Source: Patescibacteria group bacterium (GTDB taxonomy: Bacteria; Patescibacteriota; Patescibacteriia; Patescibacteriales; UBA12465). Taken from it: 64,000 bases of DNA. The notes under the pieces are model-generated. The model saw only the letters and a list, made by a program, of their open reading frames with translations, ran no database searches and was not told the origin of the DNA. The stretch covers positions 13,824-77,823 of the forward strand of contig JBMOHE010000002.1 in the NCBI GenBank assembly GCA_049318005.1. Direction: 5' to 3'. Shown here one piece after another: positions 5,034-50,708 of this stretch; position 1 is the first letter of the stretch, and every line of letters starts with the position of its first letter. The position numbers and the translations under genes are program-made.

Positions 5034-5990
5034 TTAATACAGAGACATCTCCCAGTCCTTAAGCCAAGAAATGAAAATTGCGCCCGACCTATTATCAGGC
5101 CTAATCCTTCTCAAAATCCATTTATTTTCTTCCCCCTGTCTTGAACCAGGGATAACTGAGACGGCCGTTAAGTATGGAGTTGAGGAAGCAAGCGCAAAAA
5201 ACTCTGGTTTATATAGGCCAAAAGGATAGGCGAAACTCAAAACTTTTTGGCCAGAAATTTGCTCTAATTTTTGACGACTAGCTTCTATTTCAAATCTTGC
5301 ATCTTTAAACTTTAAATTTCTTAAATCGGGATGATTAAAAGTATGCGAACCAATTTCCACTAAACCGCTTGAGGCCAATTCTTTTACCTGGGTTTTAGTT
5401 AAGTATCCCGGAGTGTCTAGAGCATTAATAATTACATAAAGAGTCGCCTTATAATTATACTTTACAAGCAAAGGGTAAACTTTAGTATAAAAATCTTCAT
5501 AGCCGTCATCGAATGTCAAAACTATATTATTATTACTCAACTTGTTTTTACTATTTATACTACTAGCCACATCAGAGATAAATAGCGAACTGTAGTTATT
5601 ATTTTTAAGTTCTTGAAGCTGGCCTTCAAATATTTTTGGATCTAAATATAACCCTTTTAGAGTGGACGAGGCCGGCGCAATTCCAATATAGTGATACATC
5701 AAAATTGGCACTGTTTCCGAGAAACCATTTAGTCTTGTGCTTTGTTGCGCTAAAGTATCGGTTTTTAATTTTGTCAGATTATTTATTAGCGGTAAATTTT
5801 CTTTAGTATTGGTCTTAGTCAAACTTTCATAAACTTCTATATTAGAGTTTGTAATCGTTTCACTGGGCTTTAAAATTTTTCTACTAAAAATATAAAATAT
5901 AATCAATAAAAGAATAACTAAAAATAGACTATAAATTATAACTATAGCCTTTTCTTTTTTTGATTTTTTAGACTCAAATAATTTAAACAT
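5034..5990 (-). CDS. Polysaccharide deacetylase (NodB homology domain), membrane-anchored
   Basis: N-terminal TM helix; LTFDDGYEDFY (TFDDG motif) and GSHTFNHPDL (HxxH motif). Confidence 0.85.
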   Translation of the reverse strand: MFKLFESKKSKKEKAIVIIYSLFLVILLLIIFYIFSRKILKPSETITNSNIEVYESLTKTNTKENLPLINNLTKLKTDTLAQQSTRLNGFSETVPILMYHYIGIAPASSTLKGLYLDPKIFEGQLQELKNNNYSSLFISDVASSINSKNKLSNNNIVLTFDDGYEDFYTKVYPLLVKYNYKATLYVIINALDTPGYLTKTQVKELASSGLVEIGSHTFNHPDLRNLKFKDARFEIEASRQKLEQISGQKVLSFAYPFGLYKPEFFALASSTPYLTAVSVIPGSRQGEENKWILRRIRPDNRSGAIFISWLKDWEMSLY

Positions 5991-10003: not shown

Positions 10004-10247
10004 TATCAGATTTTTTTAATTTACAATTACAACTATTTTTCAAAATATTAGTCATGCCCCCTCCAGTTGGCGTTTTTAGTGGTTAATATATATTATTTAT
10101 TCATAAATTGTTAAAGAATGTTTATATATAATCTTATTCTTTATTTAAAAATATTTCAAGTCTAAAAAATAGCTAATAAAAGCCCTATTTTTAAGATATT
10201 TTGACCGAACGAAAAACGCAACGTATAATAAATATATATAAATTATT

Positions 10248-10745
10248 ATGCAAACTCCCTATCGCCGCAAAGAAACCTATGTGAAGCCAAAACCGGATCC
10301 CTTTTTAACCGAGGCTAAGTTTTTAGAACTCAAAAATAAATTAGAACGCATGAAAGCTTCGCACCCCGCTCTTGCGACTGAAGTTAAGCGCTTAGCAGAA
10401 ATGGGCGACTTTTCTGAAAACGCCGGTTATCAAGATGCAAAACATAAACTACGAGGTTTGAACCAAAGAATTTTAGAACTCGAAGCTCATTTAAAAGTCG
10501 CCGAAATTTTTCATCCTAATAAAAATATTAATAAGGTTCAGTTAGGACACCATGTTACAATTGAAACTGGAGGCAAAGAAAAAACCTATACTATTTTAGG
10601 CGGGTCAGAAACTGATCCAACGGCCGGAATAATTTCTCATAGCTCACCAATTGGCGCCGCCATTTTAAATCATAGCGTTGGCGATATTATTAAGGTTATA
10701 ATTAATGATAAAGAAAAAATTTATAAAATATTAAAAATTTTTTAA
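10248..10745 (+). CDS. greA: Transcription elongation factor GreA
   Basis: Coiled-coil tip MGDFSENAGYQDAK (acidic D/E pair) and C-terminal GreA domain ISHSSPIGAAIL. Confidence 0.9.
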   Translation: MQTPYRRKETYVKPKPDPFLTEAKFLELKNKLERMKASHPALATEVKRLAEMGDFSENAGYQDAKHKLRGLNQRILELEAHLKVAEIFHPNKNINKVQLGHHVTIETGGKEKTYTILGGSETDPTAGIISHSSPIGAAILNHSVGDIIKVIINDKEKIYKILKIF

Positions 10746-12078: not shown

Positions 12079-13368
12079 CTATTTCTTTAAAAATGGGAAG
12101 CTAACATATTCTGATTTGCCCTCAAGTTCGGCTTCAATCGCCATTAAACGATTATACTTAGCTGTTCTTTCGCTACGAGCTGGTGCGCCGGTTTTAATTT
12201 GACCAGTACCAAGAGCAACAACTAAATCAGCAATGAAAGCGTCTTCTGTTTCACCGCTACGATGAGAGATAACCGCTGTCATACCGTTAGCCTGAGCTTC
12301 ATTTACGGCTTTAATAGTTTCAGTTAATGATCCAATCTGATTTAGTTTAATTAAAATTGAGTTAGTAATTTTTTCGGCGATCCCCCTTTCTAATCTTTTA
12401 ACGTTAGTAACATATAGATCATCTCCTACTACTTGAACCTCCCAGTTAAACGCATCCGTGAAAGCTTTAAAACCAGTCCAATCATCTTCAGCTAAAATAT
12501 CTTCAAATGATAAAATAGGATGACGTTTACTTAAATCTTGATAGAAAGAAATTAATTCCGCGCTAGTCATTACTTTATTTTCTTTTTTCAAGTGATAGGC
12601 GTTATCAGAGAAAAATTCAGTCGCGGCTGCATCAATACCATAAACAATATCTTTGCCCAATTCATACCCAGCTTTTTTAACCGCCTCAGTTAATAAATCA
12701 AAAGTTTCTTCGTTAGATGATACGGCCGGAGCAAAACCTCCTTCGTCGCCAACACTAATACTATATCCTTTATCTTTCAAAACTTTTTTCAAAGCTTGAT
12801 AAATTTCCGCACACATCTGGACTGCTTGAGAAATTGATTTAGCGCCAACTGGTAAAATCATATATTCTTGAATATCAGTTGCCCAATTAGCATGTTTACC
12901 GCCATTTAAAACATTCATCATCGGCACAGGCATTTTATATGTTCCAGAAAAATTAGGATTAAACTTTGATAGATATTGATATAAAGGCTGGTTTAAACTA
13001 GTCGCCGCTGCACGAGCCACCGCCATGGAAACGCCTAAAATAGCATTAGCTCCCAAAACTGCTTTATTCTCAGTCCCGTCTAGATTAATCATAATACTAT
13101 CAATTTTTTCTTGCTCAGTTGCATCCTGGCCGATTAAGGCTGGAGCAATCTTTTCTTCGATATTTTTAACCGCATTTAAAACACCAGCGCCACCATAAAC
13201 AGCCTTATCGCCATCACGAAGCTCAACCGCTTCATAACTCCCAGTTGAAGCGCCACTTGGAACCGCCGCCCAACCACTAACACCGTTTTCTAAAATAACA
13301 GTTGCGGATAAAGTTGGATTCCCTCTTGAATCTAATATTTGAAGTGCTTTAATTGATTTTATTTTCAT
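12079..13368 (-). CDS. eno: Enolase (phosphopyruvate hydratase)
   Basis: 429 aa; ILDSRGNPT, SHRSGETED, IKTGAPARSERTAKYN signature blocks. Confidence 0.97.
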   Translation of the reverse strand: MKIKSIKALQILDSRGNPTLSATVILENGVSGWAAVPSGASTGSYEAVELRDGDKAVYGGAGVLNAVKNIEEKIAPALIGQDATEQEKIDSIMINLDGTENKAVLGANAILGVSMAVARAAATSLNQPLYQYLSKFNPNFSGTYKMPVPMMNVLNGGKHANWATDIQEYMILPVGAKSISQAVQMCAEIYQALKKVLKDKGYSISVGDEGGFAPAVSSNEETFDLLTEAVKKAGYELGKDIVYGIDAAATEFFSDNAYHLKKENKVMTSAELISFYQDLSKRHPILSFEDILAEDDWTGFKAFTDAFNWEVQVVGDDLYVTNVKRLERGIAEKITNSILIKLNQIGSLTETIKAVNEAQANGMTAVISHRSGETEDAFIADLVVALGTGQIKTGAPARSERTAKYNRLMAIEAELEGKSEYVSFPFLKK

Positions 13369-14850: not shown

Positions 14851-16038
14851 TTAAAGACTAGCTGAAAGCTTATAAGCAATTTTTGCGATCTCTTCCATCT
14901 CGTCAGTCTTAACAACTAAAATCTTTACCTTAGAGCCAACTTGACTTAATTCAACTTCAACGCCTTCTGATATATTATTTAATTCCTTATTCAACTCTAC
15001 TCCCAAAAATTCCATATTCTCACAAATTCTTTCACGCATAACAAATGAACGTTCGCCAACAGTTCCGGCTAAAATAATTAAATCAACTCCGCCTAAAACA
15101 GCGGCCATACGGCCAATGTATTGCTTAATGCGATTAACGTAAATTTTTAAAGCTAAGGTTGAATCAGCATGTCCAGCCGCTTCGCTGGCAAGTAACTCTC
15201 TAAGATCATCGCTCTTGCCAGATAAACCAAGCAAACCGCATTCATTATTAAAATACTTTCCTAACTCTTTATAATCTTTATTTAATTTTTCCGATAAATA
15301 TAAAACGGCTCCCGGATCAAGATCGCCAACTCGAGTAGCCATAACCAAGCCTTCAAGCGGCGTAAAACCCATTGAAGTATCAATACTTTCACCATTTTTA
15401 ACAGCGGTTATACTGGCGCCGCCGCCTAAATGACAAACAATAACTTTTTCAGGCAGCGCTCCTAAAGTTTCGGCCGCCTTAGAAACAACAGACTGAACTG
15501 AAATTCCGTGATAACCGAAACGACGCAATCCTAATTCTCGTGAATCTTTAATCGGAATAGCATAATAACGAGCCGCCTCAGGAATACTAGCGTGAAAGGC
15601 GCTATCGGAAACGCCAGCTACGGGATGATTATCGCCAAAAACTTTTTTCAAACATTTGATTTCTTCAAGCGCCGGTGCTAAATGAAGAGGAACTTTTTCC
15701 AGGGCAGCGCTCGCCATTTCTAAATACTCATTATCAATGATTTTATTTGTTAAAAAATACTCACCCGGAGCGACAATTCTAATACCAGACAAATCAACTT
15801 CTTCACGCGAGTTAATTAATTTATTTCTAACTAATGACTCGGCAATAAACTCAACCGCATTAATATAAATATCTTTATCAATTGTGGTTTTTACAGACTC
15901 GTTATTAAATTTTTCCGCAACAACATAGATTCCGTCCTCCATCTCAAAATGCGCCGTATAAACTTTTTTCTCATCACTATAAAAGGAATATTTTTTAGAT
16001 GTGCTGCCGGTGTTGATAATTAAATATTTCTTAGCCAT
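14851..16038 (-). CDS. ackA: Acetate kinase
   Basis: YLIINTGSTSKKYSFY N-terminal motif, RFGYHGIS, ASKHA-fold length (395 aa). Confidence 0.92.
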   Translation of the reverse strand: MAKKYLIINTGSTSKKYSFYSDEKKVYTAHFEMEDGIYVVAEKFNNESVKTTIDKDIYINAVEFIAESLVRNKLINSREEVDLSGIRIVAPGEYFLTNKIIDNEYLEMASAALEKVPLHLAPALEEIKCLKKVFGDNHPVAGVSDSAFHASIPEAARYYAIPIKDSRELGLRRFGYHGISVQSVVSKAAETLGALPEKVIVCHLGGGASITAVKNGESIDTSMGFTPLEGLVMATRVGDLDPGAVLYLSEKLNKDYKELGKYFNNECGLLGLSGKSDDLRELLASEAAGHADSTLALKIYVNRIKQYIGRMAAVLGGVDLIILAGTVGERSFVMRERICENMEFLGVELNKELNNISEGVEVELSQVGSKVKILVVKTDEMEEIAKIAYKLSASL

Positions 16039-38703: not shown

Positions 38704-38826
38704 TAATTTAATGTTTTAAAAGTTCAAAACAAATTTTAACTATCAAAGTAAAATACCACGAGGCATGCTTTTTGTCAATGTAATAAAAAAGCTCAATCTT
38801 GCGAAAGAGCTGTTGACTTGAATAAT

Positions 38827-39324: not shown

Positions 39325-39756
39325 TTACCAATCTTTAGCACATTCAATATATTTCTCACCAATATCATATTTCTGTTTTTTATAGAAATCCAAGGTTTTC
39401 TTATTATTAGTAGCTGCATAAAGAACTGTCCAGGAGCAGCCATCTTGCTTAGCATTTTTTTCAAATTCTTTGAGCAGTTTTTTACCTATTCCCTGACCCC
39501 TAAATTTTTTATCTACCACAATTACCCAAACAATAGAACCGGCGGCTTTTAACTTCTCACCAAAAATTAGACCAATAACTTTTTTATCTTCTTCGGCGAT
39601 TAAAAAATAATTCTTGTTTAGAAGATGCTTAAGATGGCCAACAGTAAAATGTCCGCCGTTAGGATAAAATAATTCCGGAGAGTTACATAAATCTTCACAC
39701 TGTTTTAAGTCAATTGTTTTGCATGGCTTAATATTCATAATCCTCATATTACTCAT
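39325..39756 (-). CDS. GNAT family N-acetyltransferase
   Basis: VVDKKFRGQGIGKKLLKEFE acetyl-CoA motif. Confidence 0.8.
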   Translation of the reverse strand: MSNMRIMNIKPCKTIDLKQCEDLCNSPELFYPNGGHFTVGHLKHLLNKNYFLIAEEDKKVIGLIFGEKLKAAGSIVWVIVVDKKFRGQGIGKKLLKEFEKNAKQDGCSWTVLYAATNNKKTLDFYKKQKYDIGEKYIECAKDW

Positions 39757-39841
39757 AAATTATATCAAATTTTTTTGGAAATAAAAAACCCTGAAACTGC
39801 ATTAGTCCCAGGGATTAATTTTTACGATTTTATCGTTTCTC

Positions 39842-40303
39842 TTACTTAATAAGGCCGATTTTTTTCGCGCACCGAATGGACATACAATATCCATTAGTGT
39901 ATTTAAATTCCGAAAGAGTTCTGGCTTCAGGATCAACAACGAATGCCCAGGCATCAATACACATTTCAACCAGTGCGGATTTTCTCAAATTTTTCAAAGC
40001 ATTATTTAGTGACCAGCGCCAACTATTTGCTAATAGATTTTCTGCCACATATTCTTGAAAGCGAATAATATCTCCCTCCACTTCCAAGGCCTGTTCGCAA
40101 ACCGGAGTAAACGTATGACATTCATCTAAGCGTTTTTGGGTAATAATGTCTTCAAAAAGACTTCTTTTCATTGACCAACTATTACCATGCTTGGTAAATA
40201 TCTTAATGATAATATCCAACATGCCGTCATTTTCGACGCTATAAAAAAATTTTTGATTCCAGCCCGTTTTTACATTACTCGGACTATTGCTTTGCATCTT
40301 CAT
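39842..40303 (-). CDS. Hypothetical protein (153 aa)
   Basis: Long ORF, no recognised motif. Confidence 0.5.
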   Translation of the reverse strand: MKMQSNSPSNVKTGWNQKFFYSVENDGMLDIIIKIFTKHGNSWSMKRSLFEDIITQKRLDECHTFTPVCEQALEVEGDIIRFQEYVAENLLANSWRWSLNNALKNLRKSALVEMCIDAWAFVVDPEARTLSEFKYTNGYCMSIRCAKKIGLIK

Positions 40304-40336
40304 CTTTTACTAGTATTTGATTGTTGTTAATGTAAT

Positions 40337-40360
40337 AAAAAAACATACCATATGGTATGT
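40337..40360 (-). terminator. Intrinsic terminator following repeat copy R1
   Basis: Perfect palindrome ACATACCATATGGTATGT followed on the minus strand by TTTTTTT. Confidence 0.7.
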
Positions 40361-40376
40361 CTTTTGTCAATACTTC

Positions 40377-40453
40377 TCCGCGAACTGAATCTTATTAGAG
40401 CTTGTTTAATTAGTTAATTTTACCCCCAGGGTAACTCACTATATATTAGTCAC
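40377..40453 (-). repeat. Copy R1 of a ~70-nt 3'-flank element (orphan copy)
   Basis: TCCGCGAACTGAATCTTATTAGAGCTTGTTTAATTAGTTAATTTTACCCCCAGGGTAACTCACTAT aligns along its length with 42337-42405 and 48951-49020. Confidence 0.75.
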
Positions 40454-40555
40454 GATAGCGTAACCGCTTTTGGTTTCGCTAGCAATATAGAGAGAGGTGG
40501 TAAAAATAAAAAAGAGAGGTCTATTGCTAGCCTCCCTGATTTTAATTTTAATTAA

Positions 40556-40810
40556 TCATAAATTACCAAGCGCTTTTCCTAATTTATCCAATTGATCTTT
40601 GCTATACCCAGCCTGAGTAAAAGAATTAGGATTGTCAAAGTCTGATGGATGAGATATATGACGGATATGATACCCCTGGCCACCACAATCCGTACAAGTT
40701 TGTTTTCCGCTTCCATACTTTTTCCAGGAAGAAGTGTCTCCGCATATCCATTCAAAATTTCTTTCTTTACCTGATCCATTACAGGTAGTACAAGTTACCT
40801 TTTTTTCCAT
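40556..40810 (-). CDS. Small DnaJ-type zinc-finger protein (84 aa)
   Basis: CTTCNGSGK...CTDCGGQG (two CxxCxGxG motifs). Confidence 0.6.
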   Translation of the reverse strand: MEKKVTCTTCNGSGKERNFEWICGDTSSWKKYGSGKQTCTDCGGQGYHIRHISHPSDFDNPNSFTQAGYSKDQLDKLGKALGNL

Positions 40811-40879
40811 GACAGTGTTTTTTACAAGATTAATACTAATACGTTTTTTAACGATTTAATAACAAATTAACCAAAATAA

Positions 40880-41068
40880 TTACTGTGTGTAGTCAGTGTA
40901 AGTAGTGCTTACTGTGACTTTACGACGACCATCACATTCTGTACAAGTAACTTGTTTTGGTTTCTCATCCCAATAACGGCCACCAAAGCTGTAATGCCAG
41001 TTAGATATTTTACCTACACCATTACAACGTGAGCAATTTTCTTCTGTAACAACCAACTTTTGTCTCAT
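40880..41068 (-). CDS. Small zinc-finger protein (62 aa), paralogue-like of the 84-aa protein
   Basis: CSRCNGVGK...CTECDGRRK. Confidence 0.55.
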   Translation of the reverse strand: MRQKLVVTEENCSRCNGVGKISNWHYSFGGRYWDEKPKQVTCTECDGRRKVTVSTTYTDYTQ

Positions 41069-41169
41069 CTTATTTGCTTTTTAAATTAGTACTTATTAAA
41101 TTTTTAAAGTTCTATTAGCTATTAACAAATTATTTTAATACAAATATTGAATAATGTCAAACAAAATTA

Positions 41170-41198
41170 TTGACTAATTACAGATAATGAATTATATT
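41170..41198 (+). promoter_or_regulatory. Sigma-70 promoter for the plus-strand trio 41269-42125
   Basis: TTGACT-17 nt-TATATT. Confidence 0.55.
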
Positions 41199-41268
41199 AA
41201 ATAGTTGAGTTATATAAATAAAACTTACAAATTTAACTAGTTTTTTTAACAATTAAATACTTATTAAA

Positions 41269-41733
41269 ATGGAAAGAGTAATTGTAGATTTTAGTGTAGA
41301 TTATAGTATTTCACTTGAAGACATGATTGACGATAGCTCATTCGTGTCACAAGGCAGCGGAGCTCATTGCCTAAAAGAAATTGATTGTGATTTATTTACT
41401 CACCCTAATGAATTAGATGGCAATACAGATTATCTTGAAGGGACACTATTCAGTTTTTATCACTCAGCTCACGGTATGCATGTAATTCCAGAAGAAAGAA
41501 TTATCGAAGAAATGGAGCGCGAGGGGTATCGACCAGCTAACGTAGCCGAACTTTTAGCTTATTGCCAAGCTGCTTTAGATGATAATTTTTTAGAAGAAGG
41601 CTGTATTATGGCAGTAGGACAAAACGAAACTGAGGCAAGAAGTACTCGGTGGCCATGTATTAACTTGGAGGAAAAAACTATTTTTACTGATCTTAATTTG
41701 TATTATAAACATAGTTTTCTGGGCGTAAGATAG
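41269..41733 (+). CDS. Hypothetical acidic protein (154 aa)
   Basis: Long ORF downstream of the promoter; no motif recognised. Confidence 0.5.
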   Translation: MERVIVDFSVDYSISLEDMIDDSSFVSQGSGAHCLKEIDCDLFTHPNELDGNTDYLEGTLFSFYHSAHGMHVIPEERIIEEMEREGYRPANVAELLAYCQAALDDNFLEEGCIMAVGQNETEARSTRWPCINLEEKTIFTDLNLYYKHSFLGVR

Positions 41734-41765
41734 AATAAAACATTAATAATTTAAAAAGGTAAGCA

Positions 41766-41993
41766 ATGAAAACAGTTATTGTAGTAATTGACAAAGTTAC
41801 CATGGAACCAATTCCTGGTAAACGTATTGTACTGGGATTTTCCTGGGGTATGAGTAAAACAGTTTATACCGATGATGACGGTGAGGCTGAAATCGAACAC
41901 ACTAGTTCAGCAATGGCAGAAGTTTATATTAACGGCACTTATGTCGACAAAATACAAACTCCGACCAGAAAAAAGTTTTATGTGAAAAATTAA
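41766..41993 (+). CDS. Hypothetical small beta-rich protein (75 aa)
   Basis: SD-like AAAGGTAAG upstream; same transcription unit. Confidence 0.5.
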   Translation: MKTVIVVIDKVTMEPIPGKRIVLGFSWGMSKTVYTDDDGEAEIEHTSSAMAEVYINGTYVDKIQTPTRKKFYVKN

Positions 41994-42013
41994 TAACCGT
42001 TTAAAAAACAGAT

Positions 42014-42125
42014 CATGGACACTAAAAACAGCTACTGCCCAAGATGCAGTAAGGTTACCAGTCAAACAAAAGTTAGCAAAAACACAATGGATTATCGTTG
42101 TGATGACTGCGGAAGAGTTTCTTAA
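42014..42125 (+). pseudogene. Frameshifted zinc-ribbon mini-gene (CPRC...CDDC)
   Basis: ATG 42014 reads MDTKNSYCPRCSKVTRSNKS*; the second Cys pair (MDYRCDDCGRVS*) is in the +1 frame; removing one G of CCAGG at 42057-42061 gives one 36-aa ORF. Confidence 0.4.
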
Positions 42126-42145
42126 GAGTAAAGTAAATAATTAAA

Positions 42146-42180
42146 ACCGCATTTATGAAAATTAAATGCGGTCTTTTTTT
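42146..42180 (+). terminator. Intrinsic terminator of the plus-strand unit
   Basis: ACCGCATTTA-TGAAAAT-TAAATGCGGT (10-bp perfect stem) then CTTTTTTT. Confidence 0.85.
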
Positions 42181-42299
42181 ATTAAAAAAGGAGACTCAAC
42201 TATAAAAAATTTACTATTTTACTTTTTAAAATACTTATATTTCAGTCACAATAACGTCACACTTTGATATTTTAGGCAGTGTATTTTACGTGTTTACAA

Positions 42300-42326
42300 C
42301 AAAAAATAGGCTAATGTTAGCCTATT
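42300..42326 (-). terminator. Intrinsic terminator after repeat copy R2
   Basis: Minus strand AATAGGCTAACATTAGCCTATTTTTT. Confidence 0.65.
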
Positions 42327-42336
42327 TAATGTTTGC

Positions 42337-42405
42337 TCCGCGAACTGAAGCTTATTAGAACCTGTTTGATGAGTTAATCATACCCCATGGTAACTCACTA
42401 TGTGT
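42337..42405 (-). repeat. Copy R2 of the ~70-nt 3'-flank element, directly after the giant-gene stop codon
   Basis: TCCGCGAACTGAAGCTTATTAGAACCTGTTTGATGAGTTAATCATACCCCATGGTAACTCACTATG. Confidence 0.8.
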
Positions 42406-45400
42406 TTATTTTAAATCACCCACATCTATTTTTCTAATATTTTCATTACTTATTCCAAGAGATAACTGTCTCATTATTTGATAAGCAGCCTCTCCGTTAG
42501 CGAGATAATATCTGTAACCATCAGTTGGGTTAATATACCAGGCTTCCCCGTTATTTTCTACTTGAAGAACTATTCTGCCTTTTAATCTATTAGTTAGAGC
42601 GGTTGAATAATTAGTATTCTTGATATAATCACTTGGTAAGACAGAAGTAGGAGCAACTGGTATTTTGTTTAAATCGGCATTAGTTATTCCTAACCCAAAC
42701 TTACGTAGAGCTTGATAGGCAGCTGGTCCATCAGCTAGATAATATCTTGATAAAGAGACCTTGTCTAAATACCAGGCTTGGCCTTTAGTTTCTACTTGGA
42801 GTAATATGCGGCCAGCTAGTTTAGTTGAAAGCTTCTTATCTATTATCTTAGATAGTAGTGATCTTTCATATTGATAGATGCTGGAAATATAATTATTAGC
42901 CTGACCATCTTTGGTTGGCTCATTGACTTCTGGGGTAGTAGGGGATCCGCAACTTCTTTCAGTGAGAGCTCTTTGCTCAGCTGTTAGTGAGCAGAAGTTT
43001 GGAGATTTAGCTAGAACGTTTCTAAATTGTTTACCGCCGATACAAGTGGTTTGCCAAGCGTCGTAAGTTACTTCAGAGCAGCTAGAGATAACTAGAGGAG
43101 AATATGAGCTGCCACTTGCAGGGCTAGCTACTGGATTATTACCAGTATAGACAACGTATTCGGAAAAGTGCTTAGTCCAGACAATCAAATCGCTGCCAAC
43201 ATTAATTTTACAATCGCCATTAGCTATTAAGGCGTCACCGTCTAACTGGGAATCACCGGAGCAAGTATTACTAATTGGCCTAAACTCTCCCATATTGTTA
43301 ATAAAGCCAACATTATTACCAGCCTGACCGAAGAATGTCACTCTAACTGCTTTATTTAGAGTTAAGGTGGCGTTAGGGTCGCCGATTTCGAAAATGGAGA
43401 TAATGTCACTAGTTTTAAGAGATATGGACCCCGCTGCTTTTTGCTGAGGCAAACTAAATACCTCCGACCAAGCTAAAGTATTAGCAGTCATAGTTGTTCC
43501 ACTAAATACTTCCAAGCGAATATCTGAGGAGATATTAGCAATTAATTTCTCAGCGAAAGTGACTGTTTTACTACCACTAACAGTTTCAACGACAGAAGAA
43601 AGGTCAAGAGATATTTTATTAACACTATCAACACTACTAATTGTTGTTTGGGCATGCTTCATGTCTGGTGAAAATGCGATAGCTTGTGAATTACTAGTAT
43701 TTATGTATATAGGCTGAACGTTTATTAAAGTAACTGATTTAGCAAAATAGTTAGAGACTAAACCGCTACTATCTTTTGACCAGGCGTAAAGATTGTTTCC
43801 AAACGATGAGGTATAAATATTATTTCCAGATACAGCAATCAGGTCAGAGCCTCTATTAGAAGCAGCGACCAAAGATCCACTAAGGGTAGAATTAAAACTA
43901 GTCCAATTAGCGCCACCATCTAGAGACTGGTAACCATTACTTCCAGACAAAGCTATAATGTGTTTATCATCCTCTCCTGAGATGATAAAGGAATTAATAG
44001 ATGTGTCTTGAATCTTAAACTCTGTCCAAGTATTACCATCGTCTTCTGAAAAATACTTACTATCAACTCCGTCATTATTAACCGTCGCTACTAATTTAGT
44101 TCCGTAAGATGAGTATTTCAAACCGCCGCTAATTAGTGTTCCCGATGGACGAGTCTTTTGCAAATAGTTAACACCACCATCTGTTGACACCCAGATAAAA
44201 TTACCAACTTCAGAATTACCAGCCGCAATTTTTTCACCATTTCTAGTCATTGTGATTGCTAGCCAGTCACTAACAGCCACTGATGAAGAAGCCCAGGTGG
44301 CTCCACTATCACTGGACATATAGATGTCGGTAGCGTTACCAGTAACAACAATCTTTGAGCCATCAGAAGATGAATCTATTACTCTGAAATTTCCAGTAGT
44401 AGCACTAGACCAAGTAGAGCCGCCATTAATAGATTTCGAAACACCGCTTGAACCAGCTAGATATAATTTTAGGCCATCAGCGGAGGCGCCAAGATCATAC
44501 CAAGTACCAGCCTCTGTGCTTACAGAACTCCATATTTGACCATAGTCAGAGGAAGTTGAGATGGTGCTGTTATTTATTAGAGCAAAAATCTTCTTACCAT
44601 CAGCTGCGCTAATTATTTTCTGAATAGCGTTAGAAGTAGTGGTTGATAAAGTCCAGGTAGCTGGATGACTTGGCTTTAGACTACTAAAGGCGTGGCTGGT
44701 TGGCGCCTGAGATCGCCAGCGAGAATTATTAGATAACGGCTTTTGATCTGTTTCGGTTAACAGATAGGCGGCAGCATTAGTTACTGGACTGAGGATTAGA
44801 GAAACAACTGAAGAGCTAGACACAAGAGGAATAGACAAAGAATCGGAATTGGAAGTAACTAAAATTTTCCATTGGCCATAAGCTGTTTCTTCGTTATTAG
44901 TAGCATAGGCACGGTAGTAATAGACAGTACCAGAAGTTAATCCCGACAAATCATATGAATAGTTACTATCAGAGAATGGACTACTTTCTGTAGTAGTGGC
45001 ATAGTTATTAATACTTGCCCCCCAGTTGAATCCTCTAACCGTTGGATCAAAAACATCTACATATTCAATGTTACCATTAATGGTTGCTGAGCTTGATTCT
45101 AGATTAGAAACTTCATCTGTTATTATCTTTTCAGATTTAAACTTGATTATGAAGATATCCATATTTCCATCTGAAACAAGATTAGAAACACCATATCCTG
45201 TGTCAAAATCGACGGTACCAGGAAAATAACCAGTGACATAGACGTTACTCAAAGAATCTACGGTAACTGATTCTCCATAATCATTACTAGTTGCACCAAT
45301 ACTTTTAGCCCAGGCGAATGCTCCATCAGCATTTAATTTAGAGATGAAGATATCTACATTGCCAGCTGAGACAAGATTATAAACACCAGACCCTGGGTCA

Positions 45401-48400
45401 AAATCAACAGTACTAGAAAAAGAACCAGTTGTATAGACATTGCCTGAGAAGTCTACAGTAATTGAATGCCCAGTATCATAACCAGTTCCACCCATCTTTT
45501 TTGCCCAAACAAAATTACCATTACTATCTAATTTTGAGATGAAAATATCATCACTAGCTGAAGTGAGATTATATACCTCCTCTCCTGGATCAAAATCACC
45601 GACGCCACGAAAATAACCAGTAGTATAAATATTACCTAAAGAGTCTACAGTGATTGAGTTTCCTCGATCATCACTAGTTCCGCCCATCTTTTTTGCCCAA
45701 ACAAAATTACCATTACTATCTAATTTTGAGATGAAAATATCATCACTAGCTGAAGTTAGATTATATACCTCCTCTCCTGGATCAAAATCACCCGTACCAG
45801 AAAAATAACCGGCGGTATAGACGTTACCCAAAGAATCTACAGTGATTGAATATCCATGATCATTACTAGTTGAACCAATCTTTTTTGCCCAAACAAAATC
45901 ACCATTATTATCTAACTTTGAAATAAAGATGTCAGCACTACCAGTTGAAACAAGATTGTAAGCGCCAACTCCGGGATCAAAATCAGCGATATAATCAAAA
46001 TAACCAGTGGTATAGATATTGCCCAAAGAATCTATAGTGATTGATTTTCCTGCCTGACCAGAAATTCCGCCAATTTGTTTAACCCAAATAAAATCACCAT
46101 TACTATCTAGTTTTGAAATAAAAATATCACTTTCACCAGATGAAACAAGATTATGTGTCCCCTCTCCTGGATCAAAATCAACGGTACCTCGGAAAGAACC
46201 AGTAGTATAAATATTACCAAAAGAATCTACAGTAATCGAATATCCATGATCATCACTAGTTGAACCCATCTTTTTTGCCCAGGCAAATGTTCCATCGGCG
46301 TTTAATTTAGAGATGAAAATATCTTCATTGCCAGCTGAGACAAGATTATACACGCCAGATCCTGGGTTAAAATCAACAGTATCAGAAAAACTACCAGTAA
46401 TATAAACATTATCCAAAGAATCTACAGTTATTAAGCGTCCATTATCACCACCATTTCCGCCAATCTTTTTTGCCCAAACAAAATTTTGTTCATAATTAGG
46501 GGACTTGGTTTTGAATACCGTCCAATCCCCATAAACAGTGTCTTCATTATTACTAGTAGCGTAAGCCCGATAATAATATATCGTATCAATTTCTAGATCA
46601 GTTAATTCATAAGAAAATGTTCCCGCTCCAAATGTACCATTCTCTGTAGTTGTGGCAAAAGTGCTAGTACTTATTCCCCAATTAAAACCCCTAGTCGTTA
46701 AGACAATTGAGCCTATTCCTAAAATATCACCCCTAAGAATGGCTGTATGTTCATCAATACTGTTTAAAATTAGCGCTTCTACGGAAAAGCTATTAAAAGA
46801 TTTCCACTCGCTATAACTGGTTCCCATATTATCAGTAGCATAGGCCCGGTAATAATATATAGTACCAGGAACAAGATTTGAGAGATTATAAGAATAAGTT
46901 CCTTCGCTGAAAGTGCCATTCTCTGTAGTTGTGGCAAAAGTGCTAGTACTTGTTCCCCAATTAAATCCTCTGACATTCGGATTACTTTCACCAATAGATA
47001 ATATATCGCCATTTAAGATAGCTGAATCTCTATTTAAGCCACCGACAATTGAGTTAAGTTCTAAAACTCTGTTAGTAGTAAACGAAGTCCACTCGCTATA
47101 ACTGGTTCCCATATTATCAGTAGCATAGGCCCGGTAATAATATATAGTACCAGGAACAAGATTTGAGAGATTATAAGAATAAGTTCCTTCGCTGAAAGTG
47201 CCATTCTCTGTAGTTGTGGCAAAAGTGCTAGTACTTGTTCCCCAATTAAATCCTCTGACATTCGGATTACTTTCACCAATAGATAATATGTCGCCATTTA
47301 AGATAGCTGATGATGTGCTAATATTATTAACAGTGGAAGAAACCATAGCTAAATCTATTTTCCGTATTTTTAAAATATAAGCATCAGATAGACCGGCTGA
47401 GACAAGATTGGAAACACCGACCCCTGGGTCAAAATCAACCGTGCCAGAAAAATAACCAGTGGTATAGAGGTTACCCAAAGAATCTACAGTGATTGAATAT
47501 CCATGATCATTATTATTTACACCAATATTCTTAGACCAAATAAAGTTACCACTGCTATCTAATTTAGAGATAAAGACATCGTTGCCGCCATTTGAAGTCA
47601 GATTATATACTCCACTTCCTGGATCAAAATCACCTGTACCAGAAAAATAACCAGTGGCATAGATATTACCCAAAGAATCTACAGTGACTGAGTTTCCTTG
47701 ATTGCTATTAGTTGAAACTATCTTTTTTGCCCAAACAAAAACGCCATTACTGTCTAACTTGAGAACAAAAGTGCCACCGTTCATCAGACTAGAAACACCA
47801 GTTCCTGGGTCAAAATCAACCGTGCCAGAAAAATAACCAGTGGTATAGACATTTCCCGAGGAGTCTAAAACAATTGAAGCCCCTCCATCTACTACAAAAG
47901 ATTTGCCAATTTTCTTATACCAAAGAGAATTCCCATTAATATCTAATTTGGAAATAAATATATCAGATCCATTCTCGCCAGTTATATAGGTATTTCCAGA
48001 TGGATCTACGGTGATTGATTTTCCTTGATTATAATGACCAGCGGTAGATCCGCCTATCTTTTTGGCCCAGGCAAAAGTACCATTAGCATATAGCTTAACG
48101 ATAAAATCAGAGGAGTCATTCGTCGAAGTTAGGTTAAAAACACCAGCTCCCGGATCAAAATCAACGGTGCCTTGAAAAAAGCCAGTGGCATAGATATTAC
48201 CCAAAGAATCTACAGTGACTGAGTTTCCTCGTCCTCCATAAATTCCGCCGCCCATATTCTTAGCCCAAGCGAATGTTCCATCGGTATTTAATTTTGAAAT
48301 GAAAATGGAATCGGCGCCACCAGAAACAAGATTAGAAACACCAGCTCCTGGGTCAAAATCAACGGTGCCATAAAATACACCAGTTGTATAGACATTACCC

Positions 48401-48756
48401 GAGGAATCTAAAACAATTGAATGCCCAGCATCATAACTAGTTCCGCCCATCTTTTTTGCCCAAACAAAATTACCATTACTATCTAATTTTGAAATAAATA
48501 TGTCATAATTACCAGCTGAAACAAGATTAGAAACACCAGCTCCTGGGTCAAAATCAACGGTGCCATAAAATACACCAGTTGTATAGACATTACCCAATGA
48601 GTCTAAAATGATTGAATATCCAATATCATCGCCAGTTCCACCAATCTTTTTAGCCCAATCAACAGCAACATCTTCCGCTAACGCTGGCCTAGAAGAGAAA
48701 AAAATTAGAGCGAAAACTAAAATAAAAAAGCATTTTTTGAAAGTTTTTAAATTCAT
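42406..48756 (-). CDS. Giant secreted surface protein (2116 aa): two SBBP-type beta-propeller repeat arrays, four FN3/Ig-like modules, Asp-box (BNR-like) region, Cys module, two C-terminal ~60-aa repeats
   Basis: Signal peptide ...SSRPALA/EDV; many repeats of the type G.S.D.G.SI.VDS.GN.Y.TG.F.GT.DFDPG....L.S.G..D.FISKL; SxDxGxTW-like boxes (SSDYGQIW, SDSGATW, EDDGNTW, LDGGANW). Confidence 0.85.
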   Translation of the reverse strand: MNLKTFKKCFFILVFALIFFSSRPALAEDVAVDWAKKIGGTGDDIGYSIILDSLGNVYTTGVFYGTVDFDPGAGVSNLVSAGNYDIFISKLDSNGNFVWAKKMGGTSYDAGHSIVLDSSGNVYTTGVFYGTVDFDPGAGVSNLVSGGADSIFISKLNTDGTFAWAKNMGGGIYGGRGNSVTVDSLGNIYATGFFQGTVDFDPGAGVFNLTSTNDSSDFIVKLYANGTFAWAKKIGGSTAGHYNQGKSITVDPSGNTYITGENGSDIFISKLDINGNSLWYKKIGKSFVVDGGASIVLDSSGNVYTTGYFSGTVDFDPGTGVSSLMNGGTFVLKLDSNGVFVWAKKIVSTNSNQGNSVTVDSLGNIYATGYFSGTGDFDPGSGVYNLTSNGGNDVFISKLDSSGNFIWSKNIGVNNNDHGYSITVDSLGNLYTTGYFSGTVDFDPGVGVSNLVSAGLSDAYILKIRKIDLAMVSSTVNNISTSSAILNGDILSIGESNPNVRGFNWGTSTSTFATTTENGTFSEGTYSYNLSNLVPGTIYYYRAYATDNMGTSYSEWTSFTTNRVLELNSIVGGLNRDSAILNGDILSIGESNPNVRGFNWGTSTSTFATTTENGTFSEGTYSYNLSNLVPGTIYYYRAYATDNMGTSYSEWKSFNSFSVEALILNSIDEHTAILRGDILGIGSIVLTTRGFNWGISTSTFATTTENGTFGAGTFSYELTDLEIDTIYYYRAYATSNNEDTVYGDWTVFKTKSPNYEQNFVWAKKIGGNGGDNGRLITVDSLDNVYITGSFSDTVDFNPGSGVYNLVSAGNEDIFISKLNADGTFAWAKKMGSTSDDHGYSITVDSFGNIYTTGSFRGTVDFDPGEGTHNLVSSGESDIFISKLDSNGDFIWVKQIGGISGQAGKSITIDSLGNIYTTGYFDYIADFDPGVGAYNLVSTGSADIFISKLDNNGDFVWAKKIGSTSNDHGYSITVDSLGNVYTAGYFSGTGDFDPGEEVYNLTSASDDIFISKLDSNGNFVWAKKMGGTSDDRGNSITVDSLGNIYTTGYFRGVGDFDPGEEVYNLTSASDDIFISKLDSNGNFVWAKKMGGTGYDTGHSITVDFSGNVYTTGSFSSTVDFDPGSGVYNLVSAGNVDIFISKLNADGAFAWAKSIGATSNDYGESVTVDSLSNVYVTGYFPGTVDFDTGYGVSNLVSDGNMDIFIIKFKSEKIITDEVSNLESSSATINGNIEYVDVFDPTVRGFNWGASINNYATTTESSPFSDSNYSYDLSGLTSGTVYYYRAYATNNEETAYGQWKILVTSNSDSLSIPLVSSSSVVSLILSPVTNAAAYLLTETDQKPLSNNSRWRSQAPTSHAFSSLKPSHPATWTLSTTTSNAIQKIISAADGKKIFALINNSTISTSSDYGQIWSSVSTEAGTWYDLGASADGLKLYLAGSSGVSKSINGGSTWSSATTGNFRVIDSSSDGSKIVVTGNATDIYMSSDSGATWASSSVAVSDWLAITMTRNGEKIAAGNSEVGNFIWVSTDGGVNYLQKTRPSGTLISGGLKYSSYGTKLVATVNNDGVDSKYFSEDDGNTWTEFKIQDTSINSFIISGEDDKHIIALSGSNGYQSLDGGANWTSFNSTLSGSLVAASNRGSDLIAVSGNNIYTSSFGNNLYAWSKDSSGLVSNYFAKSVTLINVQPIYINTSNSQAIAFSPDMKHAQTTISSVDSVNKISLDLSSVVETVSGSKTVTFAEKLIANISSDIRLEVFSGTTMTANTLAWSEVFSLPQQKAAGSISLKTSDIISIFEIGDPNATLTLNKAVRVTFFGQAGNNVGFINNMGEFRPISNTCSGDSQLDGDALIANGDCKINVGSDLIVWTKHFSEYVVYTGNNPVASPASGSSYSPLVISSCSEVTYDAWQTTCIGGKQFRNVLAKSPNFCSLTAEQRALTERSCGSPTTPEVNEPTKDGQANNYISSIYQYERSLLSKIIDKKLSTKLAGRILLQVETKGQAWYLDKVSLSRYYLADGPAAYQALRKFGLGITNADLNKIPVAPTSVLPSDYIKNTNYSTALTNRLKGRIVLQVENNGEAWYINPTDGYRYYLANGEAAYQIMRQLSLGISNENIRKIDVGDLK
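46804..47310 (-). repeat. Intragenic near-perfect tandem duplication, 285-bp period (two FN3-like modules)
   Basis: 46804-47025 and 47089-47310 are nearly identical (one mismatch noticed: ATATATCGCC vs ATATGTCGCC); a diverged third unit lies at about 46505-46790. Confidence 0.85.
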
Positions 48757-48950
48757 AAAGAATATACTATTTTATTTTAACATATATATAGATTTATTTT
48801 AACATATAGAATTAAAAGCATCAAAAAAATTAATTAAACAAAGATAAAAATATTCTAAGATAGGAGTGGTAAGCTTTTATTAAACCGTTTTACTAAAATA
48901 ACTTAAATATAGCAAAAACAAGCATTTCTTCCTATTTTTGAATTACTAGC

Positions 48951-49020
48951 TATGCGAACTGAAGCTTATTAGAACCTGTTTGAGGAGTTAATTATACCCC
49001 CAGAGTAACTCACTATTGTT
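48951..49020 (-). repeat. Copy R3 of the ~70-nt 3'-flank element, directly after the truncated-paralogue stop codon
   Basis: TATGCGAACTGAAGCTTATTAGAACCTGTTTGAGGAGTTAATTATACCCCCAGAGTAACTCACTATTG. Confidence 0.8.
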
Positions 49021-49965
49021 TTATTCTAAGTCACCAACACCTATCTTTCTAATATTTTCATTACTAATTCCAAGAGATAACTGTCTCATTATTTGATAAG
49101 CAGCCTCTCCACTGGCAAGATAATATCTATAACCATCAGTTGGATTAATGTACCAGGCTTCCCCGTGGTTTTCTACTTGAAGAACTATTCTTCCTTTTAA
49201 TTTATTGGCTAAAGCGGTTGAATAATTTGAACTTTTTACATAATCACTTGGTATCGCTGATTTTGGCGCTACAGGTATTTTAGCGAGATTGACATTATTA
49301 ATACCTAAACCAAACTTACGCAAAGCCTCATAGGCGGTTGGGCCATCAGCTAGGTAATATCTCTGTAGTGACACGGCATCTAAATACCAAGCTTGACCAA
49401 AACGCTCTGTTTGCAGCAATATCCTGCCAGCCAAACGTTTAACTAGGTTTTTATCAATTTTTATTGTTAATTTTTTTTCGTCCAATATAACGCTAGACGT
49501 TTTAGAATTGATAATGTTACCTAAATTTTTTATTTCTAAAATTGATTCAGTGGACGTTGCTTCTTTAAGTATTTGTTCAGTTGATGTGGCTAATTCACAA
49601 ATCCTACTAGATGCTATTTGCTGAATTGTGGTTAATGTACAAGAAGCTGGAGTACTAGTTAAAACTTTACGAAATTGTTGATTGCCAACGCAAGTCTGCC
49701 AAGGAGAATAAGTTATATCCGAACAATAAGTTGTGGCTGGTCCACCACCGCCACCGCCACCTCCTCCGCTTGTAACGGTCGCTGTTTGAGTATATGTAGC
49801 AAAACTAGTAAAATGCTTAGTCCAAATTACTAAATCTGAACCTGAATTTATTTTACAGTCTCCGTCAATAATTAAATTTGCATCTGCCCAAGTTTGAGAG
49901 TTTTCTCCGCAAGCAGTTGATATCTCAGTAAAATCAATTTCTGTTCTTATCATGTTTTCTTGCAT
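49021..49965 (-). CDS. 5'-truncated paralogue of the giant protein C-terminus (314 aa, no signal peptide); possibly a pseudogene or silent cassette
   Basis: Colinear with roughly the last 330 aa of the giant protein (GDCKIN.GSDL..WTKHF, Cys module, two GRI.LQVE..G.AWY repeats); last ~200 nt highly similar at DNA level. Confidence 0.6.
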   Translation of the reverse strand: MQENMIRTEIDFTEISTACGENSQTWADANLIIDGDCKINSGSDLVIWTKHFTSFATYTQTATVTSGGGGGGGGGPATTYCSDITYSPWQTCVGNQQFRKVLTSTPASCTLTTIQQIASSRICELATSTEQILKEATSTESILEIKNLGNIINSKTSSVILDEKKLTIKIDKNLVKRLAGRILLQTERFGQAWYLDAVSLQRYYLADGPTAYEALRKFGLGINNVNLAKIPVAPKSAIPSDYVKSSNYSTALANKLKGRIVLQVENHGEAWYINPTDGYRYYLASGEAAYQIMRQLSLGISNENIRKIGVGDLE

Positions 49966-50055
49966 TTTGGCTTGTTTCCGAGAAGTATCTCGGTCAACAG
50001 CACAAAAAATGTGTTGGCTCCCAGGGTCGGATTCGAACCGACGACCAATTGGTTA

Positions 50056-50621
50056 CACTTATCCAATAGTTTCCTAAAGGGGTGGACTATATCATCATCC
50101 ATACGCTTATGGATGCAAGGCGCTTCGGGCCGTCTACCGACGGACCTACTCCCTTTCGGGATAGTCTCTGAACCTTCCCTAAACTCTAGGGCTTGGCTGC
50201 TGATTACCATATCCTTACAGATTTAGGCTTCCAGACAATTCACCTTGTTTTTCGACCTCAATTACTTGAGGAAGCTGCGTAGAACCTTCGTGCACTTCAC
50301 GATGACAATTTGCACATAATAGCATACATTTATTAAGCTCTTCCTTTATCATTTTCCAACTTCTTGTATATCCTTTTGCAGATATACCAAAATCTTTTTT
50401 ATCAGATTCTAGATGATGGAATTCAAGAGCTTTTAAACATTTACTATAACCACAAACTGAGCATCTACTGCCTTTGTATTCAAGAGATAATTGACGAATC
50501 TTTTTACGTCTTCTATCAACTGCCTGTTTTAAATACTCGGCACGATCGGCATATTTTCTTTTATCTTTTGTCATACAAATATATAAATATATTCATAGTA
50601 GCTAAAGATAAAAAAGAGTTC
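50056..50621 (-). mobile_element. Group I intron (P7.1/P7.2-bearing, IA-like) with HNH ORF in the P1 loop
   Basis: IGS GCAGCT (50273-50278) pairs with exon GGCTGT incl. U.G; P2 CCTCAA-GTAA-TTGAGG; P3 CAAGGTG/CGCCTTG; P6 CCCTA/TAGGG; P7 GACTAT/ATAGTC; P8 CATCCATA-AGCG-TATGGATG; GTTCAGAGACTA and GATATAGTCC core elements; omega-G 50056. Confidence 0.8.
50215..50574 (-). CDS. Intron-encoded HNH endonuclease (119 aa)
   Basis: CSVCGY...LEFHHL...NKCMLLCANCHREVH (CxxC...HH...N...CxxCH HNH motif); last ~35 codons overlap IGS, P2, P3, P4; stop codon in L5. Confidence 0.85.
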   Translation of the reverse strand: MTKDKRKYADRAEYLKQAVDRRRKKIRQLSLEYKGSRCSVCGYSKCLKALEFHHLESDKKDFGISAKGYTRSWKMIKEELNKCMLLCANCHREVHEGSTQLPQVIEVEKQGELSGSLNL

Positions 50622-50708
50622 ACAGCCAACTGCGCTACCGCTGCGCTACCTGGGAATATTAAGTTGTCTCAAAAAAACAAAAATGTTTTTTAAACATCTT
50701 ACTATCAT

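Follow-up and report, generated by a model that had tools for sequence, protein, structure and literature searches.

Block E, a non-coding block with a core of 63 bases, occurs three times on the minus strand of a 64,000-nucleotide stretch of DNA from a Patescibacteria group bacterium (contig JBMOHE010000002.1; the whole stretch is referred to here as the window) and a fourth time in a related but distinct genome. All four copies are oriented with local transcription and each is then followed by a hairpin and T-run. The reading that we tentatively prefer is that E may be a sequence-constrained, transcribed block lying directly 5' of the hairpin and T-run in a modular intergenic 'punctuation' cassette. 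The evidence that carries this reading is the conservation of E between the two genomes, its place before hairpins and the recurrence of the modules that adjoin it.

Conservation of block E within and between genomes

The three copies in the window, named R1, R2 and R3 (Table 1), were confirmed by direct reading at the places given in the original prediction, with a core slightly narrower than was claimed there. The 20-mer TCTAATAAGNTTCAGTTCGC, with up to three mismatches allowed, has exactly three matches in the window, against an expectation of 0.02 from shuffles, none of which (0/100) reached three; the 5' block ATAGTGAGTTAC..GGGGGTA also has three matches in the window (0.00 expected), and self-BLAST identified E as the sole dispersed intergenic repeat in the whole 64 kb. 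R2 and R3 begin 4 nt past the TAA of, respectively, a giant gene encoding a surface protein of 2116 aa and its truncated 314-aa paralogue, in keeping with the prediction that two copies directly follow these stops. R1 was said to lie downstream of an unrelated zinc-finger mini-gene, and is found ~110 nt past the stop of an 84-aa CXXC zinc-ribbon open reading frame (ORF; 40556..40810). The distance from block to hairpin is ~12-16 nt for R1, R2 and the fourth copy, and the hairpin of R3 is decayed. The claim that the element closes minus-strand transcription units, with hairpin/T-run signals right behind it, is supported by its position. R2, on the sense strand between its stop codon (42406-42408) and terminator hairpin (42304-42327), occupies the position of a 3' untranslated region (3'-UTR) element; the terminator behind R3 is decayed, and the two free-standing copies, R1 and the fourth copy, are not in a 3'-UTR but sit behind the terminator of another gene. 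A coding reading of E was rejected, as a 1-nt indel between copies breaks the frame and stops occur in every frame.

Further copies were sought in 185,579 GTDB species genomes, JGI metagenome contigs, IMG/VR and GenBank phages. The exact 20-mer TCTAATAAGNTTCAGTTCGC has one match in the GTDB species genomes, at a locus (L001) that carries a full-length copy of E and that was extended along the same contig as L012 (CAZCQW010000012.1). Searches of the JGI metagenome contigs (two patterns tried), IMG/VR (two scans) and the GenBank phages gave no match, and an nhmmer profile of the four copies found no further copy among all 22 fetched loci, which include L013, L019 and L022, carrying orthologues of a GNAT gene of the window, and L002-L011, carrying the closest homologues of the 314-aa protein. 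Gene order around E in L012 differs from that in the window. The GNAT genes of L012 and the window (39325..39756) agree at 76% of nucleotides and 79-80% of amino acids, and a 94-aa protein of L012 is 52% identical to a 124-aa ORF of the window. The L012 record is labelled 'uncultured Gammaproteobacteria', but the contig has 31.6% G+C and has the GNAT orthologue and intergenic modules in common with the window from Patescibacteria; evidently, either the bin is mislabelled or the contig is misassigned.

E is far better conserved between these genomes than the GNAT gene, the one orthologous gene that serves as benchmark. R2 and the L012 copy are identical at 58/62 positions (93.5%) and R3 and the L012 copy at 59/63, and R1 is 86-87% identical to any other copy. 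For GNAT, identity at codon positions 1, 2 and 3 is 82%, 89% and 58%, respectively, with 13/30 four-fold sites identical, and the chance of 58/62 at the GNAT third-position rate is 3e-10. The linker and terminator that adjoin E are ~81% identical between R2 and L012 (derived from 87.8% over 115 nt including E), and this unevenness speaks against a single recent transfer of the segment as a whole. E is conserved beyond neutral expectation inside the window too, where R2 and R3 agree at 58/63 positions of E compared with 51/64 third positions of the adjoining 64 codons (Fisher p = 0.04). These comparisons suggest that E is under sequence-level constraint, or else has itself been recently exchanged, and that it is not a neutral scar; it is probably functional.

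It is formally possible that E is a neutral duplication remnant, a 3' flank copied along with its gene in tandem, with R1 as the trace of a lost third paralogue. The location of R2 and R3 inside a duplicated tract of 478 nt, the dead copy of the giant gene's 5' region after R2, which shows decay of the array, and the lack of covariation described below are all in line with this. We consider it improbable and already strained, since the between-genome conservation of E lies far above third-position, four-fold and also second-position identity of GNAT, E within the window outdoes the third positions beside it, and the junction at which R1 is joined to its upstream module recurs in L012 among unrelated genes. 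The original prediction had envisaged that further copies might exist, and the one found in L012 is too well conserved for a neutral duplication scar.

The conservation of E is one of primary sequence. A hairpin with arms of varying but complementary length had been described in each copy, and the arms are as described (TGAGTTA/TAACTCA, GAGTTA/TAACTC and AGTTA/TAACT), but a functional hairpin or structured RNA did not hold up. Folding of the block alone gave z-scores of +0.26, +0.72 and -0.43 relative to dinucleotide shuffles, no better than shuffled sequence. RNAalifold kept only the hairpin (G)UGAGUUA/UAACUCA(U), in which the five central pairs are invariant, and a covariation check on the four copies returned no compensatory change among 15 predicted pairs and a covariation term of +0.88, a penalty, at the low power that four sequences afford. 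Differences in the arms between copies merely shorten the stem. A functional fold of E is not supported, and a structured cis-regulatory RNA of the riboswitch or leader type was rejected because it fails both the stability-over-shuffle and the compensatory-change tests.

Nor does E resemble an established family, as the original prediction had noted for RNA families. At the gathering threshold, Rfam returned for the window and L012 only a group I intron, a tRNA and an S-adenosylmethionine (SAM) riboswitch, all elsewhere; in E-value mode R1 and R2 gave only far-below-threshold matches, which for the most part fell on the hairpin or on the other strand (STnc370, for instance, scored 37 bits where the threshold is 54, antisense to the hairpin); and ARAGORN reported nothing at E. 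An integron attC site was rejected, as direct reading shows no RYYYAAC/GTTRRRY cores at the ends of E and the sole inverted repeat lies in its 5' half. A miniature inverted-repeat transposable element (MITE), insertion sequence (IS) end or repetitive extragenic palindromic (REP) element was rejected because the ends of E (ATAGTGAGTTAC and TTCAGTTCGC) are not mutual inverted repeats and there are three copies in 64 kb plus one in L012. A template or variable repeat of a diversity-generating retroelement (DGR) was likewise rejected: substitutions between R2 and R3 are spread over all classes with no adenine bias, and there is no reverse transcriptase domain in the scanned ORFs. None of the neighbouring ORFs scanned encodes an integrase, transposase, reverse transcriptase or recombinase. 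That E nevertheless belongs to a known structured RNA family or mobile-element class, whether riboswitch, tRNA-like element, attC site, MITE or IS end, REP or DGR, is suggested by its short inverted repeat and its location at gene 3' ends, but is extremely improbable given these findings and the lack of a match in phage and viral collections.

Modules that adjoin block E

The sequences on either side of E are themselves recurrent (Table 1). The terminator that follows R2, module T2, is also present in L012 at 9784-9830 and 12240-12284, and its stem differs between R2 and L012 by one pair that has changed on both sides, with pairing kept. Hairpin and T-run do follow both R1 and R2, as had been proposed, but the 'strong intrinsic terminator' ascribed to R1 is in fact a sigma-70 promoter module that is orthologous in L013. 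The statement that no terminator follows R3 is correct for a strong one; a weak A/U-rich remnant of T2 is present at this position.

The promoter module, P, has after R1 the arrangement TTGACA-N17-TATGTT, with the -35 hexamer at 40370-40365, the -10 hexamer at 40347-40342 and TG-n before the -10, giving 10/12 consensus matches; its hairpin is formed by the spacer and -10 region. This P serves the 153-aa gene downstream as its promoter and probably terminates transcription that arrives from upstream. The 153-aa gene and its P are orthologous in L013 (84% amino-acid identity), nucleotide homology between the window and L013 starts exactly at the module edge, at TATTGACA, and P in L013 is not preceded by E. 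Full P members, defined by matches to TTGACAAAA, number 17 (six in L002, four in L012, three in L013, two in L006 and two in the window). Their hairpin arms vary between copies with complementarity kept, and the cassettes recur between small accessory genes of several Patescibacteria genomes. In most P modules the motif A(C/T)TTAACAA(T)TT is found ~8-12 nt past the T-run. The E. coli rrnB boxA / A/U-rich enhancer tgctctttaacaatttatcag is closely matched by this motif (PMC2176067), which, at the 5' ends of island transcripts, might serve in antitermination or enhance translation.

Directly 5' of R1 is module U, a segment of ~65 nt that contains CCACCTCTCTCTATATTGC and two GTGAC/GTTAC-type pentamers ~11 nt apart and has the end TATAGT(G); it ends ..ATATAGTG, overlapping the first six bases of E. 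U is common to L012 at 9658-9727, before E, and at 15922-15994, directly before a start codon. It is also seen in L005 (~3528-3600), after a homologous gene. The nucleotides 'GTGAC TAA' that had been taken for relic codons of the gene family upstream of R1 belong to this conserved module, found twice in L012. The order of T2 followed by half of U, as downstream of R2, recurs at L012 12240-12350. The junctions in L012 are thus those of R1 on one side (U-E) and of R2 on the other (E-T2), with flanking genes that differ from those in the window, and BLAST identifies short intergenic modules common to L012 and the window amid otherwise unrelated neighbourhoods. U was considered as a sigma-70 promoter and rejected: a consensus scan called none, and in a GTGACG-N14-16-TATAGT arrangement seen by eye the spacers are too short.

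The slot that E occupies before a hairpin is filled by other blocks elsewhere, each of ~35-65 nt and ending ..GAGC(A): E in the window and L012, block Q in L012 and another block in L002 and L006. Q, of ~65 nt, ends ..CCGCAGAGC and runs into P or a T2-like hairpin, and in L002 a stretch of 5 kb contains at least nine P or T2-like hairpins that each have CCGTTCCAACTATATCCCAAACTCCGAGCA in front of them. The 40 nt before the R1 -35 hexamer match the L002 block at 21-22/40 positions in a fixed register (z 4.0-4.5; the three L002 copies tested are not independent), and most other P upstream regions score at background against it. Flanks of homologous genes in L002 and L006 align with one another at z 16.7, with the last 24 nt ~95% identical and the whole gene-end-plus-flank ~70% identical. 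Homology of E to these flanks, suspected by eye, was rejected, as Smith-Waterman shuffle z-scores ranged from -1.1 to +1.1; the L002/L006 block would be a positional analogue of E that is not demonstrably homologous to it.

Table 1. Coordinates of block E, the adjoining modules and the associated genes (positions refer to the window unless a locus is named).
Feature	Coordinates	Strand	Remarks
Block E, copy R1	40380..40442	-	Free-standing between module U and promoter/terminator module; 86-87% identical to other copies
Block E, copy R2	42340..42401	-	3'-UTR of 2116-aa gene; 93.5% identical to L012 copy
Block E, copy R3	48954..49016	-	After 314-aa truncated paralogue; 195 nt upstream of giant gene start; 58/63 vs R2
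Module U	40447..40509	-	Directly 5' of R1; overlaps ATAGTG at E start
Half copy of U (AAAGTGTGACGTTATTGTGACTGAAATATA)	42237..42265	-	Downstream of T2; read directly
Module T2 (GGAGCAAAC...)	42298..42339	-	Hairpin 42304-42327, T-run; intrinsic terminator of giant gene
Decayed T2 remnant after R3	48914..48939	-	Weak A/U-rich hairpin with one G-C pair; only 3' arm and T-run align with T2
Module P	40324..40372	-	Sigma-70 promoter and hairpin 40343-40360, then T7
P cassettes in the window	40324-40372 and ~38730-38778	-	TTGACAAAA, hairpin containing -10 hexamer, T-run
A(C/T)TTAACAA(T)TT sites, window	~40318-40335	-	
A(C/T)TTAACAA(T)TT sites, other loci	L012 ~5960-5975, ~9960-9975; L002 ~5280-5295		
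Other 3'-flank block (..GAAAGCYGTCCCTCCAAGCGAGCA)	L002 1805-1869; L006 10531-10598		After homologous genes
Giant surface-protein gene, 2116 aa	42406..48756	-	Signal peptide, SBBP beta-propeller repeats, fn3-like domains, two C-terminal GRIxLQVE..GEAWY repeats
Truncated paralogue, 314 aa	49021..49965	-	C-terminal paralogue, no signal peptide; starts ~50 nt after intron-containing tRNA gene
High-identity tract	49024..49215	-	Matches 42409-42600 (last 64 codons), continues through E, stops at E 3' end
Dead copy of giant gene 5' leader/start	42202..42242	-	ATG -> ATA; 81.6% over 38 nt vs 48755-48795; repeat family D17

According to our preferred reading, the intergenic regions of accessory islands would be assembled from three kinds of module: U, a pre-hairpin block, and a hairpin with T-run that is either plain (T2) or overlaid by a promoter (P). 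E would be this lineage's version of the pre-hairpin block. At R2, and at R3 if its ORF is expressed, E would form the 3'-UTR of a surface-protein mRNA, from stop to terminator, and at R1 and in L012 it would stand free after another gene's terminator. The copies may have arisen by tandem duplication of the gene family, by a gene-conversion tract that ends at the 3' edge of E and by recombination of modules. E would be transcribed as the last ~65 nt of an mRNA before the terminator, which for R2 is certain by position if the gene is expressed. As its primary sequence is kept but its pairing is not, E is most likely a single-stranded recognition sequence at transcript 3' ends. Its partner could be either a protein or an RNA complementary to E, with an effect on termination, read-through or the stability of the 3' end, and processing could release a 3' fragment of ~100 nt.

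A number of points weigh against this reading. The L013 locus has the same promoter in the absence of E, so E is dispensable for that promoter, and E is found in none of L013, L019 and L022 within the stretches examined. Independent copies number four only, in two genomes, and an element so rare and accessory cannot be essential. With one orthologous gene as benchmark, the conservation is also compatible with recent horizontal transfer of E. The free-standing copies lie behind the terminator of another gene, and a consensus scan found no sigma-70 promoter in U. The similarity to the L002 block is weak, with ~8 of the 21-22 matches falling in the 10 nt beside the -35 hexamer and maybe part of P. 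Finally, the proposed role at the RNA level is deduced from position.

A role in DNA was also considered, in which E would be an operator or activator site whose factor binds TGAGTTA-N12/13-TAACTCA or the repeated GTTC motifs and controls the downstream promoter. At R1, E does abut the -35 hexamer, covering roughly positions -36 to -100; a gene start or dead start lies 0-200 nt downstream on the same strand at every copy; and the L002-type block is likewise directly upstream of many -35 hexamers. However, a terminator intervenes between E and the next promoter at R2 and in L012, the promoter at R1 works without E in L013, the spacing of the half-sites varies by 1 nt, and some of the hairpins behind pre-hairpin blocks act purely as terminators. 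We regard an operator as very unlikely.

Rather more can be said for an sRNA, although we think this quite unlikely. Here E and its hairpin would constitute a trans-acting small RNA (sRNA) of ~90-110 nt that would start near ATAGTGAG, derived from the 3'-UTR at R2 and R3 and from its own start at R1 and in L012, with invariant stretches of 12 and 20 nt as seeds. Base-pairing sRNAs typically combine a strongly conserved primary sequence, in which pairing is not conserved, with a terminator behind it. Promoter-like sites lie over the stop codons (TAGAAA-N17-TAAAAT at R2 and TAGAAA-N17-TAGAAT at R3), and would put a start at the first bases of E; U ends in a -10-like TATAGT both before E and, in L012, before a real start codon; and a further promoter-like site at L012 9600-9627 is located between the upstream terminator and U-E-T2. 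Against this, the promoter matches are weak (9/12) for a genome of 34% G+C, where a scan of 39800-50100 gave 45 sites compared with 37.9 in shuffled sequence, no promoter was called in U, and RNAduplex against 75 gene starts of the window performed no better for E than for shuffled E, in what was a crude scan of this window only.

The surface-protein locus and its history

The window is chromosomal DNA of a metagenome-assembled genome, in which the genes nearby include RpoD, DnaG, ribonucleotide reductase, AspRS/AsnRS-type synthetases, ScpAB and RecO. On the minus strand the order of features is the tRNA gene, the 314-aa fragment, E (R3), the decayed T2, the 5' region of the giant gene, the giant gene itself and E (R2), and then T2, half of U, a dead copy of the giant gene's 5' region, unrelated small genes, U, E (R1), P and the 153-aa gene. 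The dead 5' region, which lies after R2, T2 and half of U, is evidence that a further paralogue once followed, and the locus reads as a decayed tandem array. The giant gene, which encodes a secreted protein, carries internal repeats: two segments of 235 nt each (46791-47025 and 47076-47310) are 98% identical, and over 45098-48742 a repeat of ~195 nt (the SBBP units) occurs 10-14 times at 60-90% identity, which marks recent duplication in the surface protein.

The homology between the R2 and R3 regions extends over 478 nt, stops exactly at ..TTCAGTTCGC and has two tiers. Over the first 72 shared codons identity is 72.7% (third positions 56%) and over the last 64 codons 89.6% (third positions 80%); E follows at 92%, and just beyond it identity is 43%. 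This looks like a later gene-conversion tract over the last protein repeat and E. The idea that the element is a recombination substrate that moves 3' cassettes of this gene family is upheld only in part by these data: the tract does end exactly at the 3' end of E. The implied tie to the gene family fell away, as the 3' flanks of the closest family homologues (P0002-P0005, P0013 and P0022, at loci L002-L011) are without E. In one of these, L006, positions 10119-10512 match the last ~394 nt of the giant gene's coding sequence (window 42427-42820) at 84.8% identity, closer there than the giant gene's own neighbouring paralogue. This homology stops ~20 nt before the stop codon, the flank differs, and nothing else in the L006 contig aligns to the window, which suggests that a C-terminal domain cassette has been exchanged between lineages. 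The homologues without E, together with the L006 homology that ends before the stop, imply that E is no general attribute of the gene family.

Should E act in DNA as a recombination anchor, in the manner of the cassettes of T4-type phages and of the 3' Sma/Cla repeat at the pil loci of Neisseria, homologous recombination or gene conversion would swap gene 3' cassettes and their neighbours, and E would be homogenised while its transcript is inert. We consider this unlikely. It would account for the two-tiered identity of R2 and R3 with its abrupt stop after TTCAGTTCGC, and for the presence beside the full gene of a 314-aa copy without signal peptide, like a silent cassette. E is joined to varying modules, with U or coding sequence upstream and P or T2 downstream, homology between the window and L013 begins exactly at a module edge, and an analogue is known from phages (PMC2839356, PMC4122927). 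Homogenisation within a genome, though, cannot give 93.5% identity between genomes whose GNAT genes are at 76%; the C-terminal cassette in common with L006 (85% at the nucleotide level) ends before the stop and excludes E; there is one candidate silent copy only and no 5' homology anchor at the nucleotide level; and the scan of neighbouring ORFs gave no recombinase gene nearby.

The 314-aa ORF corresponds to NCBI protein ACOYL8_01260, on a contig of 161.5 kb, and a search for strain variants that could betray recombination found the protein on a single contig in the collection. A Logan contig of 4066 nt (SRR30676215; L021) is the one other assembly of this strain, made independently and identical to the window, with R2 and R1 at 100%; it starts in the last 76 nt of the giant gene, directly before R2, as would be expected of an assembly that breaks at a repeat.

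Upstream of the 314-aa ORF (50015-50655, minus strand) is a tRNA gene whose anticodon loop is interrupted by a group I intron of ~570 nt. The intron core is recognised by Rfam (RF00028) at 50063-50293 with 90 bits, and its 119-aa ORF (50215..50574) has a sub-threshold HNH match (20.1 bits compared with a cut-off of 21.4). Under the splice-site rules the tRNA may be tRNA-Thr(UGU) or tRNA-Asn(GUU), and ARAGORN misses the gene on the raw sequence. In L012 an Rfam tRNA of 114 nt (5065-5178), with an insertion of ~30-40 nt and likewise missed by ARAGORN, lies just before the first P of the island, with a SAM riboswitch (2643-2749) upstream of it. The accessory island thus starts next to a tRNA gene in both genomes.

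Relation to known systems and significance

The promoter-early stem-loops (PeSL) of T4-type phages are cassettes of a promoter and a terminator stem-loop (PMC2839356, PMC4122927). The P modules share this anatomy of small composite intergenic cassettes, with a strong sigma-70-type promoter and a terminator stem-loop (two in the window and 15 in L002, L006, L012 and L013), and, as with PeSL, several copies are interspersed among small accessory genes whose function is not known. The cassettes mark where homology between related genomes begins and breaks off, as seen for the window and L013 from TATTGACA onwards and for the modules that L012 and the window hold between unrelated genes, and this fits cassette-mediated shuffling. 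There are also differences: the setting is a bacterial (Patescibacteria) chromosome and not a phage, and the promoter overlaps the hairpin where in PeSL it lies beside it. For PeSL, recombination between cassettes is demonstrated (mini-circles, indel polymorphisms), whereas for the cassettes described here it is putative. The combination of sigma-70 promoter and stem-loop is found in P and not in E, which is neither promoter nor terminator but an extra conserved block 5' of the hairpin.

Three other systems bear comparison with E. Enterobacterial 3'-UTR-derived sRNAs such as CpxQ, SroC, DapZ and MicL are flanked by a stop codon and the intrinsic terminator of their mRNA. E is like them in position, in conservation above neutral sites and in having little structure besides the terminator, but two of its four copies are outside a 3'-UTR, it is confined to two known genomes and, for E, an RNA species, processing site, chaperone or target is hypothetical. 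In Neisseria, pilE and the silent pilS copies share a conserved 3' repeat (Sma/Cla). The window similarly has a truncated copy without signal peptide beside a full surface-protein gene, with a common 3' non-coding block that ends a high-identity tract; however, there is one truncated copy, no variable mini-cassettes with conserved anchors are seen, and the free-standing copies of E are unrelated to the gene family. Integron attC sites, including the Vibrio repeats (VCR), are genome-specific repeats of ~60-130 nt after small co-oriented accessory ORFs. E recalls these sites in its place after small ORFs, in its potential to form a hairpin and in the company of toxin-antitoxin genes (a weak HicA match in L012), but it lacks R''/R' core sites and is not palindromic over its full length, no integrase was found, and the neighbouring genes carry their own promoters.

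A broader possibility, to which we assign a rather low likelihood, is that E, Q and the CCGTTCCAAC...GAGCA block of L002 and L006, together with their hairpins, are recognition sites of a chromosomal system for the punctuation and shuffling of gene cassettes in Patescibacteria, in which the block of each lineage would co-evolve with a dedicated trans factor, either protein or RNA. Such a factor would co-ordinate termination, read-through or expression across islands and at the 3' ends of surface-protein genes, and E with T2 may then also act as a small RNA.

Patescibacteria are uncultured and have small genomes, and little is known of their gene control or of variation in their surface proteins. 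The individual importance of E is limited, with two genomes so far; the more general result is a PeSL-like cassette system of Patescibacteria accessory islands, of which E is one module. A block that is ~94% identical between genomes with GNAT at 76% nonetheless points to a real and hitherto unknown recognition signal at transcript 3' ends, and the cassettes offer a handle for finding regulatory RNAs in metatranscriptomes. Ultimately, cassettes in which promoter and terminator are combined suggest that the islands are built and reshuffled as in the hyperplastic regions of T4-type phages, which, if true, would be a concrete mechanism of genome plasticity in these organisms.

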